Source: a virus
Direction: 5' to 3' (one strand)
IMG/VR virus record: IMGVR_UViG_3300027749_000055
Location: 49,660-113,659 of that record
DNA length: 64,000 bases
Below are positions 17,369 through 62,977 of this stretch, piece after piece. Below the pieces are notes generated by a model. It did not search any database. It saw only the letters and a list, made by a program, of their open reading frames with translations, and was not told the DNA's origin. Within the stretch, counting starts at the first letter, position 1. The number at the start of each line of letters is the position of its first letter. Position numbers and translations under genes: made by a program.

Positions 17369-20300
17369 TTACTCAGCCACCGTTTCGTAGTTCCATTTGT
17401 CCCTACCGCCCAATAAGACTATCTCACGCTCACTATAGCAACCCAACCCCGTTTCAGCACAGGAAAAGACTCGGCTAGCGGGCGCAACGCCGGAGAGAAC
17501 CATACCTTTATAGTCACTCCCTTGGGTCGAGAAAGTGCCGTCGGCAAACTTTTGGGCAACAATTGAGTCATACGAGAACGAACTCAGGGGACGGGTGGCG
17601 ATTTCGGGGAATCCGCCAGCACCCGTGATTTCATTGAATTCGTCTTCGAAAAATTCCATACCTCGATACAGCGGGACTTGGGTAATACCGTTCTTGGCAA
17701 GGTAGCCCTGCGTCTCGTCGTATTGAGCACGGAGAAAGGCTCGGTAGAGGTCGCCATTTTTGCTGTATTCGTCGTCTACTTTGTTGCCGTCTTCACCTTG
17801 CCATTCAGCCGTTTCCTTCAGACCAAACTCTTCGGCGGCGGCTTTTTGAATCGCCAAATTCTTTGTGGTTTCGTTTGAACCAATTGCCCACAAACTTACA
17901 AGTGCGCTTGCGCCAAGTTCGGCAAGCCGTTGCTTGATTCGAGGGTCGTCGCCGTGAACAACCTCAGTGCCATTTTCAACCGCTTGGTCTGCGTCGGATT
18001 CTTTCAAAAGATAGGGTGCTTCAAAACCTTCGTCCCCAATGCTTCTAAAGGTGTAGAGGGAGTCGTGGTCGAAATAAACCTGTGGCACAACATCAAAGTC
18101 GCCCGCAATAAAACCCTGTTCCAATAAATAAAACCGAGGGCAAGCCGTAGCAAGGCGGTCAGCCCATTTGTCCCCCATACGAGCGGCAATATTTTCCGCC
18201 ACTTTTTGCTTCAGTTCGGGCGCAACTTGTTCTGAATCTTCAGGTTCCATTGAGTCACGGTCAAAATCTTCGCCCTCGATTGCCACGCCAAGTTTGTCTA
18301 CGAGTGGAACCATTGCGTCGTAGGAATCAACGTGTGGGTCAATTTTCCCAAGGGATTCCCTGTGTCGTCCTGAACCAGGCCCGCCCTTGCGGACAGAAAT
18401 CAACTTTGTGTAGTCAGGATTACTTGTAGATTTGGTGATAAACACTTTGTTAGGCTTTCGCCAGACGGTATCTTCAAAACCCATAACACGGTTGTATTTG
18501 GGGTCTAGGCTTTCAGCAAAGTTCTTTCCCGCTTGTGAAGCAAAGCCACCGTGCAAAATTAAGGGCTTGTCCCCCATCATTTTTATTTGGTTTCGCATAG
18601 CGTCCACCATTTTGCGAGCAATACCCTGACCACGCACTTTTTCATCGGTCTGAATGTGCCAGATTTTCACCACAGGGCCTGCGATGTTTTTGTCACCCCA
18701 GTCATAGTGCGCTTTCGCTTGACCGATGATTACACCGTCTTTGTTGCGAACTTCCATACCAATACGGTCATCATTACCGTATTTTCCGTCACTAAGCAAT
18801 CCTTCGTCAGCCGTGATTTTGTATTCATTGCCATTCTCGTCTGTGAAGGTTCGTTCGCCCTCACCCGTCTTAGTCCACTGATTACCCTCAGGCTTACGAC
18901 CCGAACCAGGCCCGCCCTTACCAATCTCGACGGGGCTATGACCCTCTCCTTGGTCGGCGGTGAAGCGAGACTGCTTGGCTTCTTGGCGATTTGATTCCGC
19001 CTTGGCTTCTAATTGCGTCTTTTCACTACCCTGCGCTTGCTTGGCGGCTGTCGAGTAAAGACGAGCGGCTGATTCGTGAGCAAAAGCGGCTGAATCCCAC
19101 TTCTCCTTACGGCGCAAGTCCCACGCCCGTTGCTCAGCAGTTTGAGCGGCTTGCAAAGATTTGGAAACGTTTTGGCTGTTTTTTTTGACTTCTTTTGCTT
19201 GGTCTTCTTCAAATTGTGCGACAATTGCTAGGTAGTAAAGACGAGAGGCTTCGGTTTCGTTGCCATTTTCTTGCTCACGCTTGGCTTCTTCACGCAGTTC
19301 CGAGGCGGTCAGGTCGCCGTCTTTTGACCGAGCGGCTATTTTTGCAACATCAGCGATTTTACTATCGTCAAGAACCGTAATGTAGTTGGCGTTTGGAACT
19401 ACTGCCGATAGGTCGTAGACAAGGCTGTGGTTCTCATCACTATAAGTGCCTTCGCCTTCGTTCACATAGTAATAACCATTTTTGGCGTTGTTTCTGGTAA
19501 TTTGCCCACGCATACGGCTATTGGCTTGGTCATCACCAACGGGCGACCACACGCTGTTTTTCATACTTCCCGTAATAATCACGGGGGTAATATCGGGCTT
19601 GCTGTCCATAGCGATAGGGGTTCCGTCGGAGTAAACCGCTTCGCCTTGGTGGTCGGCGGGGTAGTGGGGAATTTGCGCCCAATCGTCCTCAGCACCGTAG
19701 CCAGCACCCGTTGAGACGATAAGCGTCTTGCCGTATTCCTCGGTTCCGTCCCAATCCTTACCGTCAGCCCGTCTGCCAATTCGTGCTTCAAGTGCGTCCT
19801 TTGCGGCTTTGTAGCCCCCAACGTGAACGCCGTAAGAGGCTTGTTTGAGTCCGATTTTGCCATTTGGAGAGCCGTGCCAAAAAACAGCGTGTGATTCTCC
19901 GTCGGGGGTGGTAATCATTTCGGGAAGGGCGTAAGTCAATTCGCCCCAGAGTCCGCCCAAAAATTTTCCGTATCGCTTTGCGCCATTTTCTTTGTGCCTA
20001 CCGCTGCCCGGCCCACCCTTTTCCACCTTGTCCAACTGAGCAACAACTTTCTTTGCCCACGAATAACCAGCGTCTCCGCCCCACGCATACCAAGCAACCT
20101 TGCCTGGGCTGGGTTCGTTCCAATGCGGGCTGTCCTTGTCGCCTTGGTGACGGTCAAAATACGCCTTCATACGGCGAATGGTGGTTTCCGATACTGACGT
20201 ACCACGGGCGAGGTCTGAGGCTCGCTTGCGTCCAACGGGGGTGAAGCCAGAGCCAGCCTTGCCGTCTTTGAGCCATTCCAACGCTTTTTTTCCAGCGTCT

Positions 20301-21037
20301 TGAACGCCCTGCGGGGGTGAGAACGTGTCGGATTTTTCCACGACGGCGAGGGCTTGAAACGCCTCAATCAACTTGCACAAGTTTTGGTAGAGGTTGATGA
20401 ACTTTTCTTCCATTCCCACAGATTCAAAGAAGTGGCTGAGGGTAATGATTTTGCAAAGGGTGAACTGCAAGGATTCTTCGTCTACGCCTCGGTTCCAAAG
20501 TTCCGCTACAAACTCCGGCGAAGGGGTGCGAGGACGGAAATTACACAAAGCGTGGTCAATGCCCACAATGCGCCCGTCGGAGGTAAAGATGACGTTCTTG
20601 GGTCGGCGGTCAGAGTTGGCGGTCAGGTAGTCAAAAAGACGCAGAGCGGTTCCCTGAGCGTTGTCGGGAATCTCCTTGTCTGCGTTTTTACCAGACTCGC
20701 CTTCAATGTAAGGCATAATCACCGTTGTAGCGTCCATAGAGGTAAAGAAGCAGTCTCGGACAGGTGCGTTCATTGCTTCGCCTACACGGGCAGCCAACCA
20801 CTCCTGCGTGGCAAGGAGTGGTGCGGGGTAGAAGCGACCCGTCTTATTACCAACCCAATCCTTCAGGACTTTCTCCACGCCGCCAGAGCCGTCGGCAAAA
20901 ATGACGAATTGGAAACCGTTATTTTGCTTACCCCCGAAGGTTCCCTCTAGGGGGTTGCGTCGAACTATGTTTGTATTGGTAAATGTAACAAAATTAGGCT
21001 GGAAAGTGCCGTCCACGGCTAACCCCGATTCAGCCAC
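17369..21037 (-). CDS. Polyvalent protein: PI3K/HipA-like kinase, head-associated domain, ART-like, GNAT, C-terminal ADP-ribosyltransferase-like; 3 KGGPGSGR tags
   Basis: FDYLTANSDRRPKN...GIDHAL; FWHGS...GVHVG; VRGQGIARKMV; LYRGM...LSSFS...EREIV. Confidence 0.75.
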   Translation of the reverse strand: MAESGLAVDGTFQPNFVTFTNTNIVRRNPLEGTFGGKQNNGFQFVIFADGSGGVEKVLKDWVGNKTGRFYPAPLLATQEWLAARVGEAMNAPVRDCFFTSMDATTVIMPYIEGESGKNADKEIPDNAQGTALRLFDYLTANSDRRPKNVIFTSDGRIVGIDHALCNFRPRTPSPEFVAELWNRGVDEESLQFTLCKIITLSHFFESVGMEEKFINLYQNLCKLIEAFQALAVVEKSDTFSPPQGVQDAGKKALEWLKDGKAGSGFTPVGRKRASDLARGTSVSETTIRRMKAYFDRHQGDKDSPHWNEPSPGKVAWYAWGGDAGYSWAKKVVAQLDKVEKGGPGSGRHKENGAKRYGKFLGGLWGELTYALPEMITTPDGESHAVFWHGSPNGKIGLKQASYGVHVGGYKAAKDALEARIGRRADGKDWDGTEEYGKTLIVSTGAGYGAEDDWAQIPHYPADHQGEAVYSDGTPIAMDSKPDITPVIITGSMKNSVWSPVGDDQANSRMRGQITRNNAKNGYYYVNEGEGTYSDENHSLVYDLSAVVPNANYITVLDDSKIADVAKIAARSKDGDLTASELREEAKREQENGNETEASRLYYLAIVAQFEEDQAKEVKKNSQNVSKSLQAAQTAEQRAWDLRRKEKWDSAAFAHESAARLYSTAAKQAQGSEKTQLEAKAESNRQEAKQSRFTADQGEGHSPVEIGKGGPGSGRKPEGNQWTKTGEGERTFTDENGNEYKITADEGLLSDGKYGNDDRIGMEVRNKDGVIIGQAKAHYDWGDKNIAGPVVKIWHIQTDEKVRGQGIARKMVDAMRNQIKMMGDKPLILHGGFASQAGKNFAESLDPKYNRVMGFEDTVWRKPNKVFITKSTSNPDYTKLISVRKGGPGSGRHRESLGKIDPHVDSYDAMVPLVDKLGVAIEGEDFDRDSMEPEDSEQVAPELKQKVAENIAARMGDKWADRLATACPRFYLLEQGFIAGDFDVVPQVYFDHDSLYTFRSIGDEGFEAPYLLKESDADQAVENGTEVVHGDDPRIKQRLAELGASALVSLWAIGSNETTKNLAIQKAAAEEFGLKETAEWQGEDGNKVDDEYSKNGDLYRAFLRAQYDETQGYLAKNGITQVPLYRGMEFFEDEFNEITGAGGFPEIATRPLSSFSYDSIVAQKFADGTFSTQGSDYKGMVLSGVAPASRVFSCAETGLGCYSEREIVLLGGRDKWNYETVAE

Positions 21038-21354
21038 TCGTCAAATGAGGTCACAGTCGGTTCGGTGGTGGTGGTGGTGGTGCTGGGTTGCCACGGCGAA
21101 GTCAGCGGGGCGAGACAGGTTGAGCAGGATTTTGCCACGGCGTTTGTCGCAAACTTACGCTTGCCGTTGGCGGTCTTCTCAATGTCCGTCGGGGCGACAC
21201 GGGAGAGATTTTGGTGTCCGTTGGGGCACTTGGTAGTGAAAAGTAGGGCGTCAGGGGCGGTGTAGTTCAGCCCACGGTATTCACCCTTGTAAAACTCTTG
21301 ATAAACGCCACCCTTGCCCAGAAGCGACGCACTCGTAAAGTCGTTTGCTTCCAT
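21019..21354 (-). CDS. Hypothetical Zn-binding protein
   Basis: Start MEANDF; CPNGH...CSTC. Confidence 0.55.
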   Translation of the reverse strand: MEANDFTSASLLGKGGVYQEFYKGEYRGLNYTAPDALLFTTKCPNGHQNLSRVAPTDIEKTANGKRKFATNAVAKSCSTCLAPLTSPWQPSTTTTTTEPTVTSFDEWLNRG

Positions 21355-21587
21355 TATTGAGCGTCCTCGCTTTGCCAATTTTCTTCGGAACTGTCGTCTA
21401 GGTCGGAATTGGAAGTGAAAACCGAGGTTACGGTTCCCTCGCCCAACCAGCCCCATTCTTGCGAACCGTCGGGAGTATCGTCCCAAGTGGGGCGACCCAT
21501 AAACGCAGGCATTTTCCCACGCTTGTCCTCTTTGGCAACGTCAAGTTGGTATGCGGCAAGCACCCACTCGTAAATTTCGTTGCTCAT
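21354..21587 (-). CDS. Hypothetical acidic protein
   Basis: Start MSNEIYEWV after GGGAG RBS; TAATG coupling to next gene. Confidence 0.55.
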   Translation of the reverse strand: MSNEIYEWVLAAYQLDVAKEDKRGKMPAFMGRPTWDDTPDGSQEWGWLGEGTVTSVFTSNSDLDDSSEENWQSEDAQ

Positions 21588-21649: not shown

Positions 21650-23365
21650 TTAGCCGTAAACAACGTCGCCGTAGAAGACGAGTTGCCAGAAAGCGTCGTT
21701 TCCGATTGCGTCGGTGTCGTCCAGCGCACCAAGTCGTCCGGCATACTTATCGTTGTATGCAGAGTAGGCACGGGCAATGTCGCTCATATTGGCAGTCTTG
21801 ACTGCTGAGTGGTCGCCGTCGTCTCCCTTTTCGGGGTCGTCGCACTTCGCCGTGAACGTAACCTTCGACCAATCATCAGTCGGGCTGGGCTTGCCGTCTT
21901 CTCCAAGGACATTTTCTTGGGATTCGTAACCAACGGTTCCGGTGTCCTTGCCGTTCGAAATCTTGATTTCGCCAAACCAACTGCCCCAATACGACATATT
22001 GCTGCACACTCCGTCGAGCAACTCACGGGCGTTCACGGGGGTTGGAATAGTCATCTTGTCGCCATTGAAGGCGGGGGCGGCTTGACCCATTTGGCTGCTG
22101 ATACTCGGACTAGCCGTTTCGAGTTCCGCTAGGTCAAGACCTTCTTCGTCCGCAACAATCTTGATTGCGTCGTTGATTGCGTCCGACAACTTCCCAGACG
22201 ATTCAAGAAGAGACATACCGTTGTCGTCGCCCAAATATTCGTGGTCTGAGTCAGTGAGGGCGTAGTAAGGCCAATAATCAGGCATTTGCTCGTCCTGCAA
22301 GGCGGACAACTTTTCGTCAGTGTCGAAACCGGCGGCAATCAGTTCTTCGCCGTCTTGGGCTGCGCTGCCATTGGGAAGGGGTTGATACAGTTCGTGTTCA
22401 CTGCTAACCAAGTATTTTCTACCTGACGGGGCGGTAATGGTAGCCATTGTTGCGCCCGCAGGTTGAAACTCTGCCCACTGACGGTCAGGGTTTACGTCTT
22501 CGTTTATCTTCAACTTCATTCCCTTGGGGAGAGAAAATGAAGAAGCGTCTAGCGTTGCGCCCTCAGGCTTACGACCCGAACCAGGCCCGCCCTTGCGAAC
22601 CTTAGACTTGGCATACTCCGAAGGAACGTTACCTTCCCATTGTTCCGGCATTTCACTAGGGTCTGCCTTGACGAGTGACGCAATTGCCCTGTCGGTGGTT
22701 GCGTTTGCTTCCTCAGCGTTGGAAATAGCGTCGCCGTGGTCGTTTAGTGCGCCTTCTTCGTCGCCACCCTCGAACTTTTGAACGGCGGAGTTGGCGAGTT
22801 GTGAAGCCAGCGAGTGCAACTCGGCAGCCTGACCAAAGAGAGCCGAGGCACTGTTGAGGTCACGACCTGCCTGACCATTGGTGACGAGCGACCGTTGGAA
22901 CAGTTCATTCTCATTGCCCTTGCAAATGTCCGCAAGGCGGGCAGACTCGTCTGCCGCTTCCTTCAGTTCGTCGGTGTCTTGGGCGTATTGAATAGCGGTG
23001 GGCTGCATACTTGCCGACATTTGGATATCGCCCGTCGTGTATGCGCTAGGACGACGACCCGAACCAGGCCCGCCCTTAGAGACTTCCTCGTCCGGCCAGA
23101 CACCGTTCACCGGCAGAACGTAGTAGTCGTCGTAGTGGTGTTCGGAGTATTCGGGGTCGTCCTCGTCCGGCATTGGGTCGTTCTCGTAGATGTGACTCCA
23201 ACCGTCCTCGAATGAGGGGAAAGTCTTGCCACCGAAAAGGGTGTTGTTAGCCCAATCCTTGATGTGGAAAAGGGTCTTGGTGCGACCACTGCCCGGCCCG
23301 CCCTTGGTGAGCGGGAACTCCGCCTCGTTTATGAGGTTATCGGTAGTAAAGGGGTTGTAGGTCAT
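21650..23365 (-). CDS. KGGxGSGR-tagged modular protein (3 tags)
   Basis: 571 aa; leader NPF...FPLTK; acidic modules. Confidence 0.8.
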   Translation of the reverse strand: MTYNPFTTDNLINEAEFPLTKGGPGSGRTKTLFHIKDWANNTLFGGKTFPSFEDGWSHIYENDPMPDEDDPEYSEHHYDDYYVLPVNGVWPDEEVSKGGPGSGRRPSAYTTGDIQMSASMQPTAIQYAQDTDELKEAADESARLADICKGNENELFQRSLVTNGQAGRDLNSASALFGQAAELHSLASQLANSAVQKFEGGDEEGALNDHGDAISNAEEANATTDRAIASLVKADPSEMPEQWEGNVPSEYAKSKVRKGGPGSGRKPEGATLDASSFSLPKGMKLKINEDVNPDRQWAEFQPAGATMATITAPSGRKYLVSSEHELYQPLPNGSAAQDGEELIAAGFDTDEKLSALQDEQMPDYWPYYALTDSDHEYLGDDNGMSLLESSGKLSDAINDAIKIVADEEGLDLAELETASPSISSQMGQAAPAFNGDKMTIPTPVNARELLDGVCSNMSYWGSWFGEIKISNGKDTGTVGYESQENVLGEDGKPSPTDDWSKVTFTAKCDDPEKGDDGDHSAVKTANMSDIARAYSAYNDKYAGRLGALDDTDAIGNDAFWQLVFYGDVVYG

Positions 23366-23374: not shown

Positions 23375-24193
23375 CTATCTCACAATCTTCTTTAGTTCAG
23401 CCTTGATTTCCTTCGCCTTGTCTCCACGCCACGTCGAAGCGTTGGCGAGGAAGTAATTGACGATTGACTTTGCGGAGTCAAGTCCATACTTGTCCGTAAC
23501 GTCGTTTAGGTCGCCCATAGCGTCGAGGTAGGGCTTTGCGCCAAAGAAAACCTTGGAACCCCAATCACGGCGAATTTCTGAAGCGATTTCACTGAGGGGG
23601 CGGTGTCCCGATTGGGTCATATTTCCAGCCTCAGCAGTGCGTCCCGAACCCGGCCCACCCTTTTTGACGGACATAGCGTCGAGTTGAGCAATGGCGGAGT
23701 CAAGAGCCTTACTCATATCCTTGGAAAAATCCACCCAACTTTGAGGGGTTTCGGGGTTATCAAGACGTTCTTGTGGCGAACCCCAACGCTTGTAGTCCTC
23801 GTTTATGTCGTAAAGAAAGCCTGACCATTCTTCGGGAGTCTCAATCTTGCTCACTCGCTTGTCGTTGAGATACATATCACGGTCAGAAACAATTTCGTCA
23901 AGTTCTTCGTGGTTAAAGTTTTCCTTCAGAACGTTAGCGATAGCAACGTCCGTGGTTCCAAGGCTCTTTTCCCATTGGTTGCCACGGAACGGGTGTCCGC
24001 CCGCTTCGCCCTTTTGGAAACGCTCTGCCTTTTGGAAGAACAGTTCAAGTTCGACAGGTGAAAAAAGTTCAGACACAGCAAACGTAGACTTGTGAACCTT
24101 CGCACCACGCCGAGGGCGAGGCTTGCGAGTAGTTGAGCGTGACGACTTACGAGCCGCCTTTGCCATAAAGTCTTCTAAGCGTTCTTCGGACAC
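23375..24193 (-). CDS. Tagged modular protein (1 tag plus KGEAGGHPFRGNQW variant)
   Basis: 272 aa; C-terminal RPLSEIASEIRRDW...PYLDAM...YFLANASTWRG module. Confidence 0.8.
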   Translation of the reverse strand: MSEERLEDFMAKAARKSSRSTTRKPRPRRGAKVHKSTFAVSELFSPVELELFFQKAERFQKGEAGGHPFRGNQWEKSLGTTDVAIANVLKENFNHEELDEIVSDRDMYLNDKRVSKIETPEEWSGFLYDINEDYKRWGSPQERLDNPETPQSWVDFSKDMSKALDSAIAQLDAMSVKKGGPGSGRTAEAGNMTQSGHRPLSEIASEIRRDWGSKVFFGAKPYLDAMGDLNDVTDKYGLDSAKSIVNYFLANASTWRGDKAKEIKAELKKIVR

Positions 24194-24225: not shown

Positions 24226-25437
24226 CTAGGCGGACATAAAGCCGGTGTCGCCCATAACCCGACTCGTTTCACCACGGGTGGGGCTGGTCGCTGCTTCAGC
24301 GGAAATTCCAGCCTTCTCACGGCAAACGCCAGCCAAGTGCTTCGCACCATACGCCATATTACGAGCGTCGGCAGCCTTTTCCTTCCACTGCTCACCAAGT
24401 GCAGCGTCAGCGTCCTTGTGACCCTTGGCAGCCCATTCGAGGTGAGTGCCACCGAAACCGTGGGCGTGACCCTGAGCCAACATAAGCAACTTCGACGCTT
24501 CGTCATACTTCTCAGCAGCCTGAGCGTAAGTGTCCTTGCTCTTGGTCTTGTCGGCTTCGCTACGCAACTTGTCGGCAGAACGGAGAGCCTCACGACCAGC
24601 CTTGAAATTAGCCTCGTAGCCAGCCCCGTAGTTCTTGTTACGGGTCTTCCAGCCAACACGGACGGTCTTGCCCTCAGGAGTCTTCTCACGGGTGTTTACA
24701 AGTTCGCCTGTGTGCTGGTTGGCACGACCACCACCGTCGCCCTTGTGACGACCTGAGCGACCCTTCACGCCATACTTGGTGACGTTGATGTAGGACTGAA
24801 ATCCCGCCGACTTTTGGAAGTCACGGGTAAGAAGCGAAGAAGTGCTGAACGACTTAGAAAAATCTTCGTCCTCGTCGTAGTAGGTGTCCTCAGCCTGTGC
24901 AGGGAAACGACCCATTTGGCTTTCGTGAACCAAACCGTCGTTCAAACCTGAGCAGCACGGGCACGACGAGTCGCCGTCACCGAAGCAAAGGGGGCACATA
25001 ACCAAAACGGCTTCCTTGGCAAACTTCATTTCAATTCCTTTCGCTGCGGGCGCAGACTTAGTAATTTGGGGGGTTGATTCGCCCTTGGCAAAGTCACGCA
25101 GACCGCCAAGGATTTCCGAAGCCTTGGTGAACATTTCACCAGCCGCTTCGTGTGCCTTGTCTGCCTCACGGAAGCCAGCAAGTGCGTTGTTGTAAGCCTT
25201 CTTCAACTCGGTGGAGTTCCAAGCGTTCTTAGCCACCGCCTCGAAGTATGCGATTTCGGTAGCCTTCAGGTATTCCGTAGCCTTTTGGAGACGGAATGAG
25301 GTGTTTTCCAATTCGCCACGGGCGACCACTTCGTCACGGCTCGCTTTAGCAATTTGAGTGGCGGCGAGAACGGGGTCTGCTGAACCCTTCTGCACAAACG
25401 AGACAGTCTTGGGGGAACTGTTGGGAACCTGAATCAT
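24226..25437 (-). CDS. Modular protein with variant tag VTKYGVKGRSGRH and Cys cluster
   Basis: 403 aa; CPLC...CPCC; many hydrophobic-x-K-[SAG] sites. Confidence 0.75.
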   Translation of the reverse strand: MIQVPNSSPKTVSFVQKGSADPVLAATQIAKASRDEVVARGELENTSFRLQKATEYLKATEIAYFEAVAKNAWNSTELKKAYNNALAGFREADKAHEAAGEMFTKASEILGGLRDFAKGESTPQITKSAPAAKGIEMKFAKEAVLVMCPLCFGDGDSSCPCCSGLNDGLVHESQMGRFPAQAEDTYYDEDEDFSKSFSTSSLLTRDFQKSAGFQSYINVTKYGVKGRSGRHKGDGGGRANQHTGELVNTREKTPEGKTVRVGWKTRNKNYGAGYEANFKAGREALRSADKLRSEADKTKSKDTYAQAAEKYDEASKLLMLAQGHAHGFGGTHLEWAAKGHKDADAALGEQWKEKAADARNMAYGAKHLAGVCREKAGISAEAATSPTRGETSRVMGDTGFMSA

Positions 25438-25496: not shown

Positions 25497-26657
25497 CTAG
25501 TTACCCTCTGCTTCGGAAGCGGCGTGTGAAGAGTCGGCTGCGCCGAATGAAGCACCGTCAGCGTCGTCGTGCAGGCTGTTCAAATACTCGTCTTCTTCGT
25601 CATCTGAGGTCTTCCACGCTCGACGGTGTGCCTCGGCTGCGTAGTGGTGCTCTTGAGCGGCTTCACGGTGCGCCTTGGCTACTTCCGGCTTGCCAGCAAC
25701 GTCGGCGGTCTGAGCGAGGATTTCGTGTTCCTTGGCAAGACCTTCGTGCTGTCGAGCGGCTTCGGCGGTGTAGGCGACCATTGTGTCGTCTGAGAGTTTG
25801 TCGGCTCGGTCAGCAATGTCCTTGGAAGCCTTCTTGGTGTAATCAGCGTCCTTGCCGGAGTCCTTTTTACCACCGCTGGTCTTGGACGAATTGCCCTTCG
25901 AACCCTTTGGGTAACGACCCGAACCCTCACCGCCCTTGGTGACGGAGGCTGAGGCTGACCGCATAGCGGCTGACTGCATAACGGGGGCTAGTGAGCGTGA
26001 AGCGATGGTTTGGATATAGTCGGCAACATTTTCGGCTGCGTATCGCTTTGCGTTTTCCAAAGTAGGCCCGACGGGAGTGTGTTCGAAAAACTTGCTTGGC
26101 TTCCCAGCCTCACTGACGGTGAAATAACCGCTGACGTAACCACGGGCGGGACGACCATTATCGCCAAGTGATTGCTGACTACGGTAGGTAATCGTCAAAT
26201 CGTGACCAGCAACGGCAGCACCTTGGGAGTCGCCATTCTTCATTTGGGTCAGTGAGCCAACAAAAAGTCGAATCGGGGTCATTTCGAGGATATTTGCACC
26301 CTCGGCGTGACGACCTGAACCCGCACCACCCTTGGCGACCATATATTCACCGTTGTAGATAAGGGTGGACTTGTCGTTAGCGTCCATACCAGCACCAAAC
26401 ATTGCGCCAGCGGCTTCGAGCAGTTGGGCACGGTTGGCGGGGTTCACCTCGACGGCTCGAACAAGGTCATCACGGCAGGAAAAGAACTCCGCAGAAGCGG
26501 TCAGCATAAGGTTGCTCGCCTCACGGATTTCACCATTGGCGTAAGCGGCTTCGGCAAACTTCATCAACGACGCACCGAGTTCAGCCTTCTTCTGAGCGTT
26601 AGCAAGCACCGAGTTCAGGCTGGCTGCGCCGTGATTCTTATTGACATTCTTCATCAT
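25497..26657 (-). CDS. KGGxGSGR-tagged modular protein (2 tags)
   Basis: 386 aa; His/Ala helical C-terminal module. Confidence 0.8.
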   Translation of the reverse strand: MMKNVNKNHGAASLNSVLANAQKKAELGASLMKFAEAAYANGEIREASNLMLTASAEFFSCRDDLVRAVEVNPANRAQLLEAAGAMFGAGMDANDKSTLIYNGEYMVAKGGAGSGRHAEGANILEMTPIRLFVGSLTQMKNGDSQGAAVAGHDLTITYRSQQSLGDNGRPARGYVSGYFTVSEAGKPSKFFEHTPVGPTLENAKRYAAENVADYIQTIASRSLAPVMQSAAMRSASASVTKGGEGSGRYPKGSKGNSSKTSGGKKDSGKDADYTKKASKDIADRADKLSDDTMVAYTAEAARQHEGLAKEHEILAQTADVAGKPEVAKAHREAAQEHHYAAEAHRRAWKTSDDEEDEYLNSLHDDADGASFGAADSSHAASEAEGN

Positions 26658-27578: not shown

Positions 27579-27580
27579 AA

Positions 27581-28039
27581 TTATCCTTCCAAAGAAACAG
27601 AGAGTTGCCACGCCCACTTGGAGTGAGCGTCAATTCGGTCTGCCAAAAAGTTAGCAATGCCTTGCTCGTTGAGCGATGTTGCCATATCAAAAGCGTCCTT
27701 CAGGCTTTCCAAAACGCCTTCATTTGTGCGAAGAAGGTCGTCCACAAGGTTCTGGGCAGTGAAATCGTCTACGGGGCTGTTGTCCACCGAAGAAAAGGCG
27801 GTGAGCGCAGAAAACGTAAAGGGTGCAAAAACACCGACCTTGCGAATGTTCTCCGCTAAGGGGTCAATGCTGTCGTAAACGTCCTCGTAGATTTCCTCAA
27901 ACTTGCTGTGCCACTGCGGGAAGTCACCACCGACCACGTTCCAATGGAAGCCGTGGACACGGTGATACATAATCGTCACATTGGCTAAGCAGGTGCTTAG
28001 CAAGTCCCCAAGGGGTGCGCTCTCCTTACGAATACGCAT
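27581..28039 (-). CDS. dps: Dps (mini-ferritin, DNA protection)
   Basis: HGFHWNVVGGDFPQWHSKFEEIYE...DPLAENIR; AHSKWAWQL. Confidence 0.9.
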   Translation of the reverse strand: MRIRKESAPLGDLLSTCLANVTIMYHRVHGFHWNVVGGDFPQWHSKFEEIYEDVYDSIDPLAENIRKVGVFAPFTFSALTAFSSVDNSPVDDFTAQNLVDDLLRTNEGVLESLKDAFDMATSLNEQGIANFLADRIDAHSKWAWQLSVSLEG

Positions 28040-56062: not shown

Positions 56063-57097
56063 TTACTTGTAGACGTGGTGCGACAACTTCTTGTCGGGGA
56101 ACGTTCCGTATGCCTTGCCGGTAGCGGGGTCGGTAATTCCAACAATGTTTCCCTTGCCCATAAACCTGTTGGTCTGGTCGTGCTGGAAGGAAACAACGTC
56201 GCCAATCTTTTCGTCGCTGCCTTGACGCTCGATTACACGGGTGAAGATAGTCCCGTTGGGTCGGTAGCCCTGAACAACAATGTGCTGCTCTGCGGGGCTG
56301 AATCCGTAAGGCTCGTTCTTACCCGTGCCCTCTTCGAGAGTGCGGGGGTTCACCATTCCGTCGGGGAGGGTGGGGTTGCCACGGTAGTAAAAACTACGAG
56401 GGCCGGTGTGGTATTCGGGGGAACCCGTGCGGAAGAACTCCCCACGCTCGGCGGAGGTCAGGTCTTCTTCGGCAACGTCGGTCATTCGAGTAACGGTTGC
56501 GGTGCGCCCAGAACCAGGCCCGCCCTTCGTCACCGTTGAATCCTCGACGTAATAGGGGAAGGTGTTACCTTCGGGGTGTTCCGAAACGTAGCGAGCAATA
56601 CGGCTTGCGGTGGCGGCGTCGGCACTGGCGGCAAAAGCCTTAATCATTTCACTATCGGAAGGGTTTGCCAATCGTGTAACTTCCTTCCAAGCGTCTGCGG
56701 CGTCTAGGTGCGCCGCAGCAGCAGCGTAGTGAGCCTTACTTGCGTCGGTTTGGAACATTTCACCTGTGTAGTCAAAGTTGCGTGACGGGGCATACAAGTT
56801 TGCCCCTTCGATAGCGTGTGCCTTTAGAATTTCAGTGTGTTCCCTAGCCATATCCGACGCTTCGGCTCGGATTTCCGCAGGGGTCTGGTCTTCAAGACCA
56901 ATGTTGTCGTGGGCGTTTTCAAGGATAGCCGCAGAGTGGTCGGCAAGAACCGAGGGGACGGAAGGCTCTTCACCCGAAGCGAGACGAGAGACTTCCCACG
57001 TCGTCAGATTTTCGGCGTAGTGGTTGGAGTGATTGGCGTGGCGACCTGAGCCCTGTCCGCCCTTTGCAATTTGTCCGGTTCCTTGTGAAAAGTCCAT
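56063..57097 (-). CDS. KGGxGSGR-tagged modular protein (2 tags)
   Basis: 344 aa. Confidence 0.8.
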   Translation of the reverse strand: MDFSQGTGQIAKGGQGSGRHANHSNHYAENLTTWEVSRLASGEEPSVPSVLADHSAAILENAHDNIGLEDQTPAEIRAEASDMAREHTEILKAHAIEGANLYAPSRNFDYTGEMFQTDASKAHYAAAAAHLDAADAWKEVTRLANPSDSEMIKAFAASADAATASRIARYVSEHPEGNTFPYYVEDSTVTKGGPGSGRTATVTRMTDVAEEDLTSAERGEFFRTGSPEYHTGPRSFYYRGNPTLPDGMVNPRTLEEGTGKNEPYGFSPAEQHIVVQGYRPNGTIFTRVIERQGSDEKIGDVVSFQHDQTNRFMGKGNIVGITDPATGKAYGTFPDKKLSHHVYK

Positions 57098-57106: not shown

Positions 57107-59959
57107 TTATCGCTTGTCTTCGCCAAATGAAACGTTTACATACATACCAGCGTTGTAGGCGACTTCGCCCACTTCGTCGGCATACACGTCGGTCTGCTCA
57201 CCCTTGACGTTCACCTTGCCCGCACGGACGTTCACACGCTGAACGGTGTAGGTGTCGTTGTCTGCGAGGTAGACACGAACCTTGTAGCCGTGTCCAATAG
57301 GGAGTTCAATGCCAACGGGCTTGTTCTTCTCCGTGAGGACGCTAACTCGACCACCGCTCAAACCAAGAATGTTCATCTTTCCAATTTGAGCGACGGTGGT
57401 TTGCGGGTCAAAGTCACGGTGTCCGCAGTTGCTAGGCATACCCGTCTCAGGGTGTCGTCCCGAACCCGGCCCGCCCTTTCGGACGCTGGACTTTCCCAGC
57501 ATTTCCTGACGGTCAAGCCACGCACCAACTGACGACTGCTTGTAGTCAGCGGGGCGGCTAGGGGCTTGGGTGGCACGGTAAATCTCGTCCTGCGTCACAC
57601 TGTCGGCAGTGTAAGCAAGTTCGTTTGCTTGGTTTGCCATTTCTTCCAACTGCTCGTCGGTGTAATTTCCAAAGTTGCCCTTGGAAATCAAGTCGTTAAA
57701 AGCCTGCGCCGCAGCGAGGTGAGCGTCGGCAGAAGCGGTGAAGCCTTGCTCACGAAGTTCCTCAGAAAGTTCTTCGTGGTCACTAGCGGTGGCACTAATG
57801 GAGTCCTCAAAGTCGTTCCATTGGTGTCCGTCGCCAAGATTGGTGTTGATAGCGTCGCTCATCAAAGCGAGACGAGTCGGCTCGTCAATACCTTTACCCT
57901 GAGCCTCAGACATTGCTTCGGCTCGGTCAGTGATTTCAGCCTTGCTACGTCCGTCGCTGGTGCGGGTGTATCCGTAGTTGTTCAAGTGGTCGTTGAAAGC
58001 GTCGGTGTGCGCCTGACCTGCGGGCGAAGTGTCTTCCTGACCCTCGCTACGAGTGTCGTGGTAGTTCGACATAGCCCCGCCGGAATACTTGCCAGCCCAA
58101 CCTTGGGGGTGACGACCTGAGCCAGGCCCACCCTTTCGAAGTGCGGACTTTTCAGTGCTTTCGCCTTCCTTTGCCATTTCAATAGCGGCTTCGATTGCTT
58201 CTTGTGCGGAACTATAGGCGTCGCCGTAAAAATCGCCGTCAGGATTTCCAACTTCAAACCAAGGGTTTAAACTAACAAGGTCGTTATCGTAAAGTTCGTT
58301 AAGTTGGTCGTCATTGACGATACCGGCACTAAAAAGGTCGTTTGCGCCGTGTGCTTGGTTTCCGTCGGGAAGTTCAATGCTCGTTTCACCAACCGCATAA
58401 ACGGTGAACGCATCTCCGTTTTCGTTTTCAACCCAAGCAACGGGTTGATTTTGTGGGTAGTGTTCCGCAAATTGCCGCTCAGGGTTCTTTGCGTCGTCGT
58501 TTCCAATTTCGAGCGTTATGCCTTCCGGCACGTCAAAAGAAATCTCGGCGTGACGTCCAGAGCCAGGCCCGCCCTTAGTGAAAACCCTGTCGGTGCGTCC
58601 ACGAACCATATCCTTAGCCGAGTAGACGTGCATTACCGTCTCTTGAAGGTTGTAGGCACGATTAGCCCACGTCCGAGCCTGCTTGTCGTAGGCAATGTGG
58701 TTGATTGGGTCGAGTGAAGCGGCAACTCGGTAGTGACCCGCAATCATATTTGCGAGGTGAGCCAACTTTTCGTTGGAATCTTTATTACCGTGAAGACTAA
58801 CTTCGTGAAATTCCTTCTCCAACTTGTTAGCGTTAGTGATTGCCTCGTCACGCTTGGCTGCCATTTCCTTTGCAGTCATCTTCGAGGAAGGCTGGTTGTA
58901 ATTACGCATATTAAACTTGGAAGAGAAGTCTTCCTTGTGACGACCAGAACCAGGCCCGCCCTTCTTCACCTTTTTTGCAGACTTCACAAATTGGTCAGTG
59001 GTAATCGGGCCACCCTTGTTGTCGCCTTCGGTGAAGTAAAACGCTTGTCCGTCCGTCACGCCACCCTTGTCTCCCGAAGTGGCGGCGTATGAAGCGTTCA
59101 CAGCCTTCACAGTGTTCTCGACGCTGGGATTGTCGGCGGCTGCGTAGTGGGCACGGGCGGCTTCGTCGTGCAACTCAGCCATACCCTTCCAATCGGGATT
59201 ATCGCTTTGAGCGTTGTCGGCAATCATTTGTAGGAAGCCGACGTGATTGCGGAGACGACCAGCCTCTTCAACGTGGCGACGAGCCTGCGAATCGTGACGC
59301 ATAGGCGAAACCTTGCCGTTCGCCTTCTGAACGTCCATATACATACGAGCGGCGGTGTCTTGAATTTTTTGCAAAGCCGCAGCAGTTTCGTGAGAAGTGC
59401 GCTCAGGGTGACGACCAGAGCCTTCGCCACCCTTAGTGACTCCCTGTTCCGCCCTTACCTCGGCATACTTGGCTCGCTTTTGAGCGCAGTCTGCTTCTGA
59501 GGTGCAAGGTGCGTCGCCGTGCATTTTGTGCCAATTGTCGTGGTCTTGGTCGTGGCGCATAACGGTAGCAAGTGACTCACTAGCGTCTTTGGCTACAAAC
59601 TTTTGTAGTCCAAAGTGGTTAGTGTATTTTTCAGCAAAGTCACTTTGCGCTTGTGCGATACTGCCTCCCTTTTCCCACGAATCCCTAGCGGCGGCGTGTG
59701 CTGAAGCGGCTTTGTAGGCAATGTTTGACCCCGTAATGTCGCCACGCTTATCAGCCTTGCGAGCCTCCACAACCAAACGGTTGATTTCTCTCTGGTGATA
59801 CTGCGCCTTTGGGTTGGAATAGCGTGTCTTAGCCTCGCCAAATCCAGCCGCAACGGTGTCGTCTGAACTGCGCTCGGCGTGACGTCCTGAACCTTTGCCA
59901 CCCTTCAAGATTTCACTAACCCACTGCTCAGCAGCCTTCTGAATACGGTCTTGTGCCAT
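57107..59959 (-). CDS. KGGxGSGR-tagged modular protein (6 tags)
   Basis: 950 aa; leader RIQKAAEQWVSEILK. Confidence 0.85.
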   Translation of the reverse strand: MAQDRIQKAAEQWVSEILKGGKGSGRHAERSSDDTVAAGFGEAKTRYSNPKAQYHQREINRLVVEARKADKRGDITGSNIAYKAASAHAAARDSWEKGGSIAQAQSDFAEKYTNHFGLQKFVAKDASESLATVMRHDQDHDNWHKMHGDAPCTSEADCAQKRAKYAEVRAEQGVTKGGEGSGRHPERTSHETAAALQKIQDTAARMYMDVQKANGKVSPMRHDSQARRHVEEAGRLRNHVGFLQMIADNAQSDNPDWKGMAELHDEAARAHYAAADNPSVENTVKAVNASYAATSGDKGGVTDGQAFYFTEGDNKGGPITTDQFVKSAKKVKKGGPGSGRHKEDFSSKFNMRNYNQPSSKMTAKEMAAKRDEAITNANKLEKEFHEVSLHGNKDSNEKLAHLANMIAGHYRVAASLDPINHIAYDKQARTWANRAYNLQETVMHVYSAKDMVRGRTDRVFTKGGPGSGRHAEISFDVPEGITLEIGNDDAKNPERQFAEHYPQNQPVAWVENENGDAFTVYAVGETSIELPDGNQAHGANDLFSAGIVNDDQLNELYDNDLVSLNPWFEVGNPDGDFYGDAYSSAQEAIEAAIEMAKEGESTEKSALRKGGPGSGRHPQGWAGKYSGGAMSNYHDTRSEGQEDTSPAGQAHTDAFNDHLNNYGYTRTSDGRSKAEITDRAEAMSEAQGKGIDEPTRLALMSDAINTNLGDGHQWNDFEDSISATASDHEELSEELREQGFTASADAHLAAAQAFNDLISKGNFGNYTDEQLEEMANQANELAYTADSVTQDEIYRATQAPSRPADYKQSSVGAWLDRQEMLGKSSVRKGGPGSGRHPETGMPSNCGHRDFDPQTTVAQIGKMNILGLSGGRVSVLTEKNKPVGIELPIGHGYKVRVYLADNDTYTVQRVNVRAGKVNVKGEQTDVYADEVGEVAYNAGMYVNVSFGEDKR

Positions 59960-59971: not shown

Positions 59972-60619
59972 TTAGCGGTAAGCGTCACGGTATTTGCCTG
60001 TGACGTTCAGGCGGTAATACGGGGGAAGAGTGTGGGATACTTTGCCATCGTAATAAACATCTTTGGCTGGCATTTTTTCCATAGTTCCGACATAACCCTT
60101 TTCAGCAAGGGCTTGACCAAGAACCATAAGTTCCTTCTTCTGGTCAAGCAAAGAAAGTTCTTCGCTTTGTCGTGTCCAGCCCCTGATTCCCACGGTAAGG
60201 CTCGCACCCTCTTGAGTGTATGTGCCCTGTGAATCAACGGTAAATCTGTGCCAGCCTCGGTAGTAGTCGTCGCTTCCGTTTCGTGCCGCATAACCCAAGC
60301 GATTACCCTCAACCCTGATTGACGAAATCACAGTAGATAGACGGCTTGCTTCACGGGTGATACCCGTGTTCTGCGAGTGATTGGAAACCGTTTGAACCCA
60401 ACCACGATTTCGCCCTCTGTCAATAATGAACTGATTAGATTTTGCGTCCTGCTCGCCAAAGTGGACAAAATCAAACCTACTCTCGTCCTTGAACTTGGCG
60501 GGAGTTTCTCCCATTGAACGCAGTTCGGGCTGTTTGGTGGCGTGACGACCACTGCCCGGCCCACCCTTGGTGATTTCACCAAGCCAGATTTCAATTGACT
60601 TTTCAATACGGTCAGACAT
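59972..60619 (-). CDS. KGGxGSGR-tagged protein (1 tag)
   Basis: 215 aa; leader RIEKSIEIWLGEITK. Confidence 0.8.
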   Translation of the reverse strand: MSDRIEKSIEIWLGEITKGGPGSGRHATKQPELRSMGETPAKFKDESRFDFVHFGEQDAKSNQFIIDRGRNRGWVQTVSNHSQNTGITREASRLSTVISSIRVEGNRLGYAARNGSDDYYRGWHRFTVDSQGTYTQEGASLTVGIRGWTRQSEELSLLDQKKELMVLGQALAEKGYVGTMEKMPAKDVYYDGKVSHTLPPYYRLNVTGKYRDAYR

Positions 60620-60676: not shown

Positions 60677-62224
60677 TTAGAGGGTCGCAACAGAAGCGGC
60701 AATAGCCTTTTCTGAAGCGTCTGCGGCAGCACCAGACAAAGCCGTGTAAGCGGCGTTGTCCTTTCCAGCCATTTGCAGGACAGAGGCAGCCCCGTCGTGA
60801 AGTTCGGCAGCCTTCTGGTGAGCAGCAATCGCCGTCATTTCACTGTCGCCGTAAAAACGGCTTGGGGTGTTCATCATTTCACGGTGGAGGTCGGCAGCCG
60901 TGGCGTGGTCATCGTCTGCCACTGCCTCACGGATAGCCTCATCACGACCACCAAGGAGTTCGCTTTGAGCCGAAGCAATGTTGGCTTGTTCAATTGAATC
61001 CATAAGGTCTGAAATTGAGTCGTCAATGTCCGAAATAGCACCACTAAAGTCTTCCAAAGCCGACGAAGCGTCGTCCAAGTTTTCCCGTGCGCCGTCAAAG
61101 TCTCCATTATCAGACCAACCGTCAATAGTGTCTTCGTCGTATTCGCTAAGGATTTCAGAGAAGCCTTTTGCGTAGGAAGCACCACGCTCGGTAGCGGTTC
61201 CAAAGTCGTCAATAGCCGAGTGTGCGGCTTCGAGAGCGGTTTCAACCGAACCAACAAAATCAGGGAAGGCTTCTTGGAATTCTTCGTCGTAGTGAATCGC
61301 TCTTTGGATACTGTTAAGAACGCTCGTCATATCGTTTACGCCGTAATTGTTCAGTTGGCTAAAGTTTGATTGAGCGTCCAACGCAGAACTTGAAGCGTTG
61401 GAAAGTGCGCTTTCCCAATCGTCCCGTGCGCTCGTCATATCATCTACACGCTCGTCTTGGTTGTCGTAATCTTCTTCTTTGGCTGCTTCTAAAGCGTCAG
61501 AGGCACTTTCCATATCACTGATGTAACCCTCGGTGTCGTCAATGTTTGATTCAACGTTGCTTCCCAAGTTTTCACTAAGATTTTCGTGAACTTCATTGCC
61601 TAAAGCAAGGGCACTTTCAATACCAGAAACGTCCGGCATTGCAATAGAACCCTCTTTGTGGCGTCCAGAACCAGGCCCGCCCTTACGAACAACCGACTTA
61701 GCGAGTTGTTCCGCCATTGACGGGTCGTCTCCCCAATATTCGGGGGTTTCTTCGGGCGACATAACCGAATGACGAGCCACTGCCTTTTCGGTGTATGCGG
61801 CAGCCTTGTCTGACTCTGCCATTGCGCTCTCGATTGCACGGTGAGTTCTAGATGAAATGTTGTCTTCGTTTGCGCCCTTGTCCTTCGACAAAATGTCGGC
61901 AGCACGGTGAGCGGCGAGAGCGGCTGTGTCGTGTGCAAGGGCGGCTTGACGGTAAGAAAAAGCAACTTGTTGAGCGTTCGCATTGTTTTCCATTTCGCTT
62001 GCCTTGGAACGGCACTCAGCGGCGAGTTGTTCGTGTTCGTCGGCTGCCCGCTCAATCTCGTTAGCGTTGCCATACTCGATAGCGTTGGGCAGGCTGGTAG
62101 CCGACATATAGATATCGTTCACGGTGTAACCGTTACCGTGTCGTCCCGAACCAGGCCCGCCCTTCTTGACGGGGTAGTTGCTCAACCTTGGAACAAGGCT
62201 CTTCATTGAAAAAGGATTGGTCAT
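60677..62224 (-). CDS. KGGxGSGR-tagged modular protein (2 tags), highly acidic
   Basis: 515 aa; leader NPFS...YPVKK. Confidence 0.8.
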   Translation of the reverse strand: MTNPFSMKSLVPRLSNYPVKKGGPGSGRHGNGYTVNDIYMSATSLPNAIEYGNANEIERAADEHEQLAAECRSKASEMENNANAQQVAFSYRQAALAHDTAALAAHRAADILSKDKGANEDNISSRTHRAIESAMAESDKAAAYTEKAVARHSVMSPEETPEYWGDDPSMAEQLAKSVVRKGGPGSGRHKEGSIAMPDVSGIESALALGNEVHENLSENLGSNVESNIDDTEGYISDMESASDALEAAKEEDYDNQDERVDDMTSARDDWESALSNASSSALDAQSNFSQLNNYGVNDMTSVLNSIQRAIHYDEEFQEAFPDFVGSVETALEAAHSAIDDFGTATERGASYAKGFSEILSEYDEDTIDGWSDNGDFDGARENLDDASSALEDFSGAISDIDDSISDLMDSIEQANIASAQSELLGGRDEAIREAVADDDHATAADLHREMMNTPSRFYGDSEMTAIAAHQKAAELHDGAASVLQMAGKDNAAYTALSGAAADASEKAIAASVATL

Positions 62225-62239
62225 TTCACTACTCTCTCT

Positions 62240-62977
62240 TTACTTGCCGTGTCGGGTTGCTGCGGCTGTCTCGGACAATGCTTGTTGAGCAAGTTTCTCA
62301 ATACGGTCAAAGTGTTCCTTCTTGGCGGTTCCGCTCTCTACACGACGAGCAAGACCGGCGAGCGCACGGGAGGCAGCGGCATTGGCGGCGGCTGCGTCAG
62401 AGTGATACGCCGAGTGATACGCCGAGTCACCGTCACGGCGACCCACGGCACGGTGAAGTTGAGCCAACTGCGAGTGCAGTTCGGCAGCCTTCATCAACGC
62501 CTTGGCAGACAATCCGTCGGCATACCAAGTGTGACCAACCTCGTCGGCTTTGTCGGCAACTCGGTCAATGCGGTCAAGTGCTTGCGGGAGAGTAGTGCGA
62601 CCAGAGGGCTTGCGACCTGAGCCAACTCCGCCCTTTGCCACTATTGAACCGGCTTCCTTGGCACGGAAGTTTTCAATCAGTTGCTTAGCCGAAGCGAGGC
62701 TCGAAGGGAAGAGGCGAGAAACAGCGTCGGCTGAACGGTCAGAGTAAGGCTCTTGACGGTCTGCAATTCGAAAATCGTTCTTCGAGATTTGCGTGATAAA
62801 GAAACGCTCGTTCGACGACTGCCACGTCTTGCGACCACCCAGACCGTCGAGAGCCTTCCACTTCAGGGGCTTCAATGCACCCGAACCAGCGGTTCGTCCA
62901 CTGCCCACGCCACCCTTGGAGACGGGGTAGCGACTCAGGGTCGGGTTCAGTTCTTCGGGCGAAAACGGGTTAGGCAC
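62240..62977 (-). CDS. KGGxGSGR-tagged modular protein (2 tags)
   Basis: 245 aa; leader NPFS...YPVSK. Confidence 0.8.
   Translation of the reverse strand: MPNPFSPEELNPTLSRYPVSKGGVGSGRTAGSGALKPLKWKALDGLGGRKTWQSSNERFFITQISKNDFRIADRQEPYSDRSADAVSRLFPSSLASAKQLIENFRAKEAGSIVAKGGVGSGRKPSGRTTLPQALDRIDRVADKADEVGHTWYADGLSAKALMKAAELHSQLAQLHRAVGRRDGDSAYHSAYHSDAAAANAAASRALAGLARRVESGTAKKEHFDRIEKLAQQALSETAAATRHGK

Follow-up and report, generated by a model that had tools for sequence, protein, structure and literature searches.

Repeated glycine-rich joints bound exchangeable modules in a phage genome and may combine a head-protease cut site with a cargo tag

The tagged genes and their motif

In this work, we have analysed a window of 64,000 nucleotides from an uncultured virus, bases 49660-113659 of the 113,659-base IMG/VR record IMGVR_UViG_3300027749_000055 (linear, estimated to be 91% complete), and the short peptide motif K-GG-x-GSGR, hereafter the tag, which recurs in the proteins encoded there. 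A six-frame scan gave exactly 27 matches in the window, all on the minus strand and distributed over 11 open reading frames (ORFs), so that the count made in a preliminary description of this DNA, 27 copies in 11 ORFs and none in any other protein of the window, stands. Fourteen copies lie in the six tagged ORFs of cluster 1 and 13 in the five ORFs of cluster 2, and 13 further copies form cluster 3, upstream of the window at genome positions 2152-21372. The whole record holds 40 copies in 18 ORFs, which make up about 24.5% of the genome when the ORFs are taken as listed, a few of their starts being over-extended by the longest-ORF rule.

Chance would give 0.0009 copies in the window, judged by the residue frequencies of the six frames, and 200 shuffles yielded 0.005 copies each on average; apart from the tags, GG-x-GSG occurs in the window only in the protease family motif YSIGGTGSGV and in one out-of-frame match at 1940. 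Counting from the junction between the Lys and the first Gly, which we mark with a slash, the residue before it (P1) is Lys in all 40 copies of the genome, and the residue two before the Lys (P3) is V, I, L or F not only in the 27 window copies, as first described, but in 40 of 40 copies of the whole genome. After GGxGSG the tag runs on as Arg followed by His, Tyr or Lys. Within the tags, Ser is encoded by both TCN and AGY codons, Arg by both CGN and AGR, and Gly by all four of its codons. Since the codons vary while the peptide is held, selection acts on the peptide and the tag is not a DNA repeat, a conclusion that had already been drawn from synonymous variation and that these codon families support. 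The first tag stands at residues 12-21 in eight of the 11 window ORFs, the remaining tags being internal, and the leaders that precede it fall into two families across the genome, M-x-NPFST..L..YPV-x-K in eight ORFs and ..W(L/V)..(I/V)-x-K in three. Promoter-like or terminator-like sites showed no excess inside clusters 1 and 2.

Read along the minus strand, cluster 1 begins with a 643-amino-acid (aa) putative cargo polyprotein (28042-29973) with predicted cut-site lysines 17, 181 and 445 and a leader of the ..EQWLNVAK type; its modules 18-181 and 182-445 are found again behind tags in other proteins. A protein of 317 aa as listed (26664-27617, predicted cut-site Lys 21 and 184) consists of two basic modules (pI 9.4), both of which recur behind tags in P0040, P0038 and P0050; an internal MSKFEFTK may be its true start. 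There follow a 386-aa tagged protein (25497-26657, Lys 109 and 241) and a 403-aa gene product without a full tag (24226-25437), which begins with a 17-aa leader-like stretch ending VQK/G and contains a decayed copy, GVK/GRSGRHKG, at about aa 224 together with several triplets of the form hydrophobic-x-K-[GSA]; by its sequence it looks like a former tagged gene that has lost the full motif. The 272-aa protein at 23375-24193 carries a tag of a second type, considered below, and a standard one, VKK178/GGPGSGR, before a conserved C-terminal 'RPLSxIA' module. The 571-aa polyprotein at 21650-23365 (Lys 21, 97 and 258) has the leader M-x-NPF(S/T)T..L, and its module 98-258, a paralogue of module 22-181 of the cluster 2 protein at 60677-62224, recurs behind tags in five other proteins. 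The cluster ends with a polyvalent protein of 1222 aa (17369-21037), whose predicted cut-site lysines are 340, 707 and 884.

Cluster 2, also on the minus strand, comprises tagged proteins of 245 aa (62240-62977, Lys 21 and 115, leader MPNPFS..RYPVSK), 515 aa (60677-62224, Lys 21 and 181, leader MTNPFS..NYPVKK), 215 aa (59972-60619, Lys 18, leader of the ..IEIWLGEITK type) and 344 aa (56063-57097, Lys 12 and 191), and a 950-aa polyprotein (57107-59959) in which six tags (Lys 19, 176, 333, 462, 609 and 828) head six modules of 122-219 aa.

Tags as borders of exchangeable modules

Where modules of this genome are paralogous, their alignments start at the tag, with the residue that follows the Lys. 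In the 950-aa protein no two of the six modules are related to each other, and in the homologues P0002, P0003, P0005 and P0007 they occur in other orders, with the breaks at the tags. When all modules of this genome were compared with 141 tagged proteins from elsewhere, most of the 60 listed alignments had the module start coincide exactly with a tag in the other protein, though order and partners differ. The protein P0052 is instructive: it has the same kinase-like, GNAT and ADP-ribosyltransferase (ART)-like modules as the 1222-aa protein, without the modules that separate these units there, and its GNAT and ART-like modules begin exactly at its tags. Our results show that the tags bound cassettes of tag plus module that are shuffled independently. 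This agrees with the earlier placement of the tags near the N-terminus or at borders between unrelated modules, and the pattern would suit the 'plug-in payload library' then suggested. Shuffling exactly at the tags could also be read as the mark of a DNA-level recombination joint that promotes module exchange and has no function as a peptide. We find this reading barely credible, because the copies use every synonymous codon family and share little DNA identity, the peptide is conserved from 32% to 59% G+C, and the tag is also found at true N-termini.

Structure predictions place the tags in linkers. In an AlphaFold2 model of the 272-aa protein at 23375-24193, made from a 50-sequence alignment, the predicted local distance difference test score (pLDDT) is below 50 only at residues 23-78 and 177-186; the first of these segments holds the second-type tag and the other VKK/GGPGSGR, and the modules that flank the tags score 70-83 and above 95. 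A domain predicted across a tag would have spoken against the cassette scheme, and in this model there is none. A single-sequence model of aa 341-1222 of the 1222-aa protein is poor (mean pLDDT 41.6); in it, the score dips at the K707 tag, with a confidently predicted helical unit on one side and the GNAT fold on the other. The tag and about 15 residues downstream of it are enriched in disorder-prone residues, and the sequence upstream is not.

These predictions bear on the idea that the motif is a phosphate- or nucleotide-binding glycine loop, which would give the modules DNA or nucleotide binding and have no role in processing. The tag does resemble G-x-x-G-x-G-K loops, GGPGSGK[GT] being the adenylate kinase P-loop and adenylate kinases being the literature matches for GGPGSG; moreover, Arg-His follows the glycines and many small tagged proteins are very basic. 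Nevertheless we judge such a loop very improbable, as Arg-His replaces the Walker Lys-Ser/Thr and no P-loop fold follows, coil is predicted for the tag region (pLDDT below 50), and the modules behind the tag are mutually unrelated and in many cases acidic. DNA binding by a free tag would in any case be compatible with cleavage at the joint and is no rival to it.

What do the modules encode? Among the payload, Pfam recognises only the GNAT domain (aa 764-820 of the 1222-aa protein, E 6.6e-5, over the cut-off) and an untagged Dps-like gene described below, and most modules match nothing in the families scanned. The 1222-aa protein appears to be built of a kinase-like region (1-230, a lead only), a domain found in phage head genes (232-341), a GNAT acetyltransferase (708-884) and an ART-like module (885-1222, a lead only). 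The second of these corresponds to phrog_2859 and has tblastn matches inside head genes of many phages. The kinase-like lead comes from a weak Pfam match to PI3_PI4_kinase (E 0.27) and from a language-model atlas, which suggests a PI3/PI4-kinase or HipA for aa 1-340 (score 0.88) and a DraT-type ART for aa 885-1222 (score 0.92). Two or more unrelated effector-type domains are joined in one chain in the 1222-aa protein, which has GNAT and phrog_2859 besides the ART-like and kinase-like leads, and in the 950-aa protein. A Foldseek search of the 272-aa model against the PDB returned nothing with E <0.001, phmmer against PDB sequences returned nothing for three tagged proteins, and MuF and zincin domains were not found in the window.

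A second tag type and its hybrids

A second joint tag, K/G-[DE]-x-x-G-H-x-F-[HR]-G-N-Q-[YW], occurs once in the window, at 23945-24013 on the minus strand (aa 61-74 of the ORF 23375-24193), where it reads FQK61/GEAGGHPFRGNQW. It is common in homologues that lack GGPGSGRH, and untagged homologues of the 950-aa protein carry VTK/GD..GH.FHGNQY at the same joint. A blend of the two tags, K/GGPGSGRKPEGNQW, is found at about 18876-18916; two proteins elsewhere read FAK/GGPGSGPQDGHPFLGNQY, and other proteins hold GGPGSG..GHPFLGNQY in one piece. From these forms, GGPGSG and GHxFxGNQ[YW] look like two halves of one longer tag, either of which is able to stand alone. The 'RPLSxIA' module of the 272-aa protein occurs elsewhere with the GGPGSGR tag, with the second tag, with the hybrid or untagged. 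Gordonia and Mycobacterium phages have it as a small gene by itself in the right arm of the genome, and gp94 of Gordonia phage Waits has this C-terminal module without the tag.

The tag in other viruses

Pattern scans of 2.9 million viral contigs found in-frame GGPGSGRH in roughly 80 of them, with G+C contents of 32-59% and many copies in several. When 1.84 billion representative proteins were searched with a 31-column profile built from the 27 window copies, 144 clusters (50% identity) matched at E <=0.001, a floor, as a single tag barely reaches significance, and 33 at <=1e-10. Nearly all the matched proteins carry two to eight tags, and the largest of them have Phage_Mu_F, ADPrib_exo_Tox, PARP, PI3_PI4_kinase and InPase domains.

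The residue before GGPGSGRH differs by lineage, being K, A, F, E, N/D/H or the initiator Met, and any one contig or protein keeps to a single choice. About two thirds of the scan contexts, and more than 90% of the tags in the profile matches, have I, L, V, M or F at P3, and a leader of 3-30 residues stands before the first tag in 82 of 141 tagged proteins elsewhere. In four low-GC contigs, very basic genes of 65-80 aa start with M-GGPGSGR(H/K); a good Shine-Dalgarno site of the AAGGAG type lies 6-8 bases ahead of each, and stop codons come immediately before it. One of these contigs (L074, IMGVR_UViG_3300035458_000073) has four such genes of 72-78 aa at 9249-11929, one in the interval from TerL to the portal gene and three in that from the portal gene to a MuF-like gene; their products may be histone-like internal head proteins. 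Removal of the Met would leave the same N-terminus as a cut at K/GG, which makes the free N-terminal GGPGSGR a natural state, and, judged from these genes, a free N-terminal GGPGSGR on a head-module protein is the common denominator.

The tag was not found in Arthrobacter phage Edmundo. A search of one genome each of 185,579 prokaryotic species gave no convincing in-frame tagged protein: the Lys form of the pattern matched 61 stretches, nearly all of which arose by chance or out of frame in high-G+C DNA, or had a residue other than Ser at the WSN codon. The tag thus seems, on sequence grounds, to be confined to free and probably virulent phage contigs rather than prophages. The motif was not found in the full text of the papers searched, where matching strings occur only in linkers, adenylate kinases and unrelated peptides.

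The lysine before the tag and the head protease

The phage encodes its own candidate for cutting after Lys. A 504-aa fusion protein (30346-31860, minus strand) ends in an XkdF-type prohead serine protease domain at aa ~364-484 (PF14550 Peptidase_S78_2, E 9.4e-10, 39 bits against a cut-off of 24), matches PHROG head maturation protease families as well, and has, N-terminal to this domain, Asp/Ser/Glu-rich low-complexity acidic runs at aa 100-160 and 265-295. Its gene lies in the head module, between the portal gene and the scaffold-like and capsid genes, all on the minus strand. Nearly all of its 669 homologues have PF14550; H386, H414 and S478, candidates for the catalytic His and Ser, are invariant in a 36-sequence alignment.

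Prohead proteases of the assemblin fold cut behind hydrophobic-x-P1: in HK97 the cut follows Lys103, and the site of herpesvirus assemblin is V/L-x-A/S. T4 gp21 cuts at I/L-x-E (PMC12991175). In the tagged contigs, the Lys form goes together with this class of protease. PF14550 is present in 10 of the 16 contigs with Lys before the tag (K-type) and in 0 of the 34 with another residue; one complete K-type genome without PF14550 has the sister family PF04586, and with both families the comparison becomes 11 of 16 against 0 of 34 (Fisher p = 1.2e-7, a value that overstates the independence of the K-type contigs, which are partly related). The G+C content of these contigs ranges from 32% to 59%, and their proteases share only 20-25% identity with that of the window. 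One complete K-type phage has INK/GGPGSGRH inside its protease polyprotein. The preliminary description had tied the tag as a whole to the XkdF-like protease. The link holds for the Lys, both in this co-occurrence and in the [VFLI]-x-K at the edge of the protease domain described next, and not for the glycine-rich part, since GGPGSGRH is common without XkdF and with A, F, E, N/D or Met before it. As far as the sequences go, it is only the P1 Lys, and not the tag itself, that can be tied to the XkdF enzyme.

The protease domain has a similar site at its own N-terminal edge, which reads [VFLI]-x-K/[ASN]-D-E. Of 113 protease-domain homologues, 102 have a Lys six residues before [FY]TLGPW and 104 have a hydrophobic residue two before that Lys. 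This [VFLI]-x-K, present in 102 of the 113, is kept whatever is fused upstream, be it a Zeta toxin, AAA_33, a 2H phosphoesterase, a Hva1_TUDOR-like domain or nothing, and its sequence fits a self-release site of the protease. The 2H phosphoesterase fused to protease homologues is the 'RNA ligase' of Arthrobacter phage annotations.

LLQK/S and IRK/S stand just before the protease domain of the window protein. The presence of hydrophobic-x-K-[SA] at domain starts had been noted in both the protease and the scaffold, and VMK/S, VFK/A and IVK/A are indeed present in the Ala/Lys-rich scaffold-like ORF 11622-12401; as evidence for protease sites this is weak, the same triplet being found inside the capsid protein fold. 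Many tags of the window (57475, 22591, 28638, 27065, 58132 and 61681) are preceded by K-S-x-[VL]-R-K, as in ..GKSSVRK/GG and ..AKSKVRK/GG, in which a second K/S cut five residues upstream of the tag is possible on sequence. The protease carries the same K/S doublet, LLQK/S followed by IRK/S.

Proposed processing and packaging

We propose, and think rather probable on these comparisons, that the joints of these polyvalent proteins unite a cut site for the head protease with a portable N-terminal tag for cargo. Each tagged gene would encode a capsid-cargo precursor that opens either with a short leader of 3-30 residues, specific to the lineage, or with a first module lacking the tag, and continues with one to six cassettes of joint and module. 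On the P side, hydrophobic-x-Lys would be recognised by the XkdF-type prohead serine protease that the phage itself encodes (HK97-clan, assemblin-like), and this enzyme would cut between Lys and Gly once the precursor is inside the procapsid. On the P' side, the strictly conserved GGPGSGR(H), with its longer relative GGPGSG..GHxFxGNQ[YW], would be a flexible portable N-terminal tag that remains on the released module. Since the tag is kept without an S78-clan protease and with other P1 residues, it probably has a role of its own; that job, which would be independent of the protease family, is most likely to mark or hold the piece as head cargo through a conserved head component or the DNA, or to serve in ejection. 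The modules would be mostly small domains, including host-modifying types (GNAT acetyltransferase, ART-like and kinase-like), and those ejected with the DNA would act before any phage gene is expressed. We infer cleavage, packaging, ejection and the functions of the modules from the sequences and their arrangement.

A bolder form of this proposal, which we hold to be possible but doubtful, is that phage capsid cargo bears, in GGPGSGR(H) and its longer relative, an address tag that is nearly universal and does not depend on the protease. Once free at an N-terminus, whether through cutting or through loss of the Met, the tag would be recognised by a conserved head component, which may be the HK97-fold shell on its inner face, the portal or the packaged DNA, so that its bearer would be retained and later ejected.

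Several observations weigh against the processing scheme. We found no cuts, virion proteomes or expression timing for this or any tagged phage. The head module does not include clusters 2 and 3, so that their late co-expression is an assumption. In cultured phages, a tblastn search of 50,697 phage records with the 24-aa tag region gave nothing meaningful; Arthrobacter Laroyevirus has a protease domain 58% identical and yet no tag, and the Actinomycetia phage DSL-LC01 has a similar head-gene architecture and yet no tag. The K-type contigs are, as said, partly related. The domain-edge [VFLI]-x-K lies inside the Pfam model and may be kept for folding and not for self-cleavage. Covariation, finally, has been shown for one class only: for the A, F and E classes, PF00716, PF03420, PF00574 and PF01343 were not found, the searches with PF00716 and PF03420 (the latter in 0 of 50 tagged contigs) being uninformative as the control genomes were silent too, and a PHROG scan showed no protease among ten neighbours of A-class tags.

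The last point invites the question of whether another enzyme, from the host or the phage, cuts the joints, or whether they are cut only after ejection into the next host. The tag is common to phages with different head proteases and to phages in which none was identified, and post-injection autoprocessing has been proposed by Iyer et al. for some polyvalent proteins (PMC5512222). We consider such a cutter quite unlikely: we found no second protease family in the tagged proteins, a common outside protease would not yield lineage-specific P1 residues with P1 Lys tracking the S78 clan, and the hydrophobic-x-P1 form is the assemblin-clan pattern.

Alternatively, the joints may not be cut at all. 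The tag would then be a hinge or docking peptide in polyproteins that stay whole, as with the N4 virion RNA polymerase or P1 DarB; the Gly-rich spacer would also bind a partner, and hydrophobic-x-Lys would end the preceding helix. In its favour, packaging in one piece is known for some polyvalent proteins (PMC5512222), disorder is predicted for the tag region, and the cleavage in our own proposal is one that we infer. An uncleaved hinge is nevertheless unlikely, although of somewhat more weight to us than another cutter, since each phage keeps to one residue before GG, which varies from lineage to lineage in step with the protease family, the same tag stands directly behind the initiator Met in some proteins, and the leaders of 3-30 residues before the first tag in so many proteins elsewhere are hard to reconcile with it.

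Two other candidates were tried and rejected. A 2A-like ribosome skip lacks its NPGP core here and is not known in bacteria. A double-glycine bacteriocin leader does not suit tags that are internal and repeated and stand in a phage head context.

Relation to known systems

The closest known systems to the protease-released head cargo proposed here are the polyvalent proteins and the T4 cargo with a capsid-targeting sequence. Polyvalent proteins were described by Iyer, Burroughs, Anand, de Souza and Aravind in 2017 from phages and conjugative elements as unrelated effector domains in one chain, encoded next to portal and terminase genes and predicted to be packaged and injected, with processing proposed and with an assemblin-like peptidase at the C-terminus of some of them (PMC5512222). 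Like them, the tagged genes join several unrelated domains per chain, with cluster 1 beside head genes, and the ART, PARP, InPase, MuF, GNAT and kinase domain types are shared by this phage or its tagged relatives; among these signature domains only GNAT passes Pfam in the window, and Phage_Mu_F, ADPrib_exo_Tox, PARP and InPase are seen in the tagged relatives. The C-terminal assemblin-like peptidase is paralleled by the XkdF fusions to Zeta-toxin, AAA_33, 2H and TUDOR-like domains. In contrast, the text of that paper has no glycine-rich tag or cut-site rule and favours a zincin metallopeptidase for processing (PMC5512222), of which none was found here; the load of this phage is spread over 18 genes and 40 joints, and most of its modules are in no described family.

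In phage T4, the head protease gp21 removes the leader from IPI-III and Alt, and this cargo, which includes an ADP-ribosyltransferase, is carried in the head and ejected. The resemblance is in a short portable N-terminal leader ending in hydrophobic-x-P1, which the head protease would remove in our case as well. The differences are that the protease here is S78_2 and not S77, that P1 is Lys and not Glu, that the conserved element lies after the cut and would stay on the cargo, that the joints are repeated in polyproteins, and that the tag crosses unrelated lineages. In the giant phages phiKZ and SPN3US, gp175 and gp245 process head and ejection proteins at (S/A/G)-x-E (PMC5694885, PMC10052503). 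These phages share with ours a dedicated prohead protease, many head-internal proteins, a simple motif and a large ejected protein mass, so far as the latter two apply to the tagged genes as we read them, but their protease is of another clade with another P1, and no conserved P' tag or multi-cassette polyproteins have been described there. As an analogy only, encapsulin cargo-loading peptides are also short, Gly-rich, portable and terminal, and address unrelated enzymes to the interior of an HK97-fold shell; unlike the tag they are mostly C-terminal, have another sequence and bind a known site on the shell, whereas binding of the tag to the capsid is a guess. In the literature on XkdF we found no specificity data.

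What we regard as new is a shared and searchable joint, a putative lineage-specific cut site plus a conserved N-terminal tag, with its cassette logic. Capsid-carried proteins that act before phage gene expression are central to host takeover and counter-defence and are hard to spot from sequence; the T4 targeting sequence and the phiKZ cut motif are confined to their own lineages, whereas this joint is simple to search for. If the proposed release of head cargo by the protease is true, the joint would give a rule for splitting polyvalent proteins into working parts, flag hundreds of uncharacterised modules as candidate injected effectors, make the P1 specificity of the head protease readable from the genome and offer a candidate portable tag for loading proteins into capsids. 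Should the address tag also prove true, about ten added residues could load any protein into many phages, and tagged ORFs of metagenomes could be read directly as injected effectors. With 40 joints, and with tagged genes taking up about a quarter of the coding capacity, the phage of the window is at the extreme.

Genome context

The gene order on the minus strand is WhiB-like regulator, Mu-like portal, protease fusion, a 102-aa gene, cluster 1, Rpf-like transglycosylase, a GT2-TPR protein, exonuclease, two scaffold-like genes and major capsid. The WhiB-like gene (33670-34083) adjoins the head module, and the portal gene (32010-33680; Pfam Portal_Mu, E 9.2e-33) lies directly upstream of the protease gene. 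The Rpf-type transglycosylase (16552-16968) and the GT2 glycosyltransferase with TPR repeats (14803-16035) flank the head module. The scaffold-like genes (11622-12401 and 10867-11619; phrog_673 scaffolding protein, E 2.7e-8) and the major capsid gene (9827-10846; phrog_1005 major head protein, E 1.4e-92) end the module downstream of cluster 1. This confirms that cluster 1 is enclosed between the XkdF-type protease gene (30346-31860) and the scaffold and capsid genes (12401-9827), as first described. The WhiB and Rpf genes indicate an actinobacterial host.

That location does not extend to the whole tagged set, as cluster 1 alone belongs to the head module. Cluster 2 (62977 down to 56063) is 22 kb upstream of the portal gene, and cluster 3, at the start of the record, has SNF2 helicase, ParB-like and deaminase genes among its own; in a circularly permuted genome these last two clusters would adjoin.

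In the middle of cluster 1 sits an untagged gene for a 152-aa Dps/ferritin-like DNA-binding protein (27581-28039, minus strand; Pfam Ferritin, E 2.1e-15; phrog_3636 DNA binding protein, E 1.7e-26), which may travel in the head too, perhaps attached to the DNA. Outside the window, an open frame of more than 3000 aa on the minus strand (genome 30834-39968), which adjoins a DUF5047 gene and has no Pfam match and no tags, is probably a giant tail or tape-measure-like protein.

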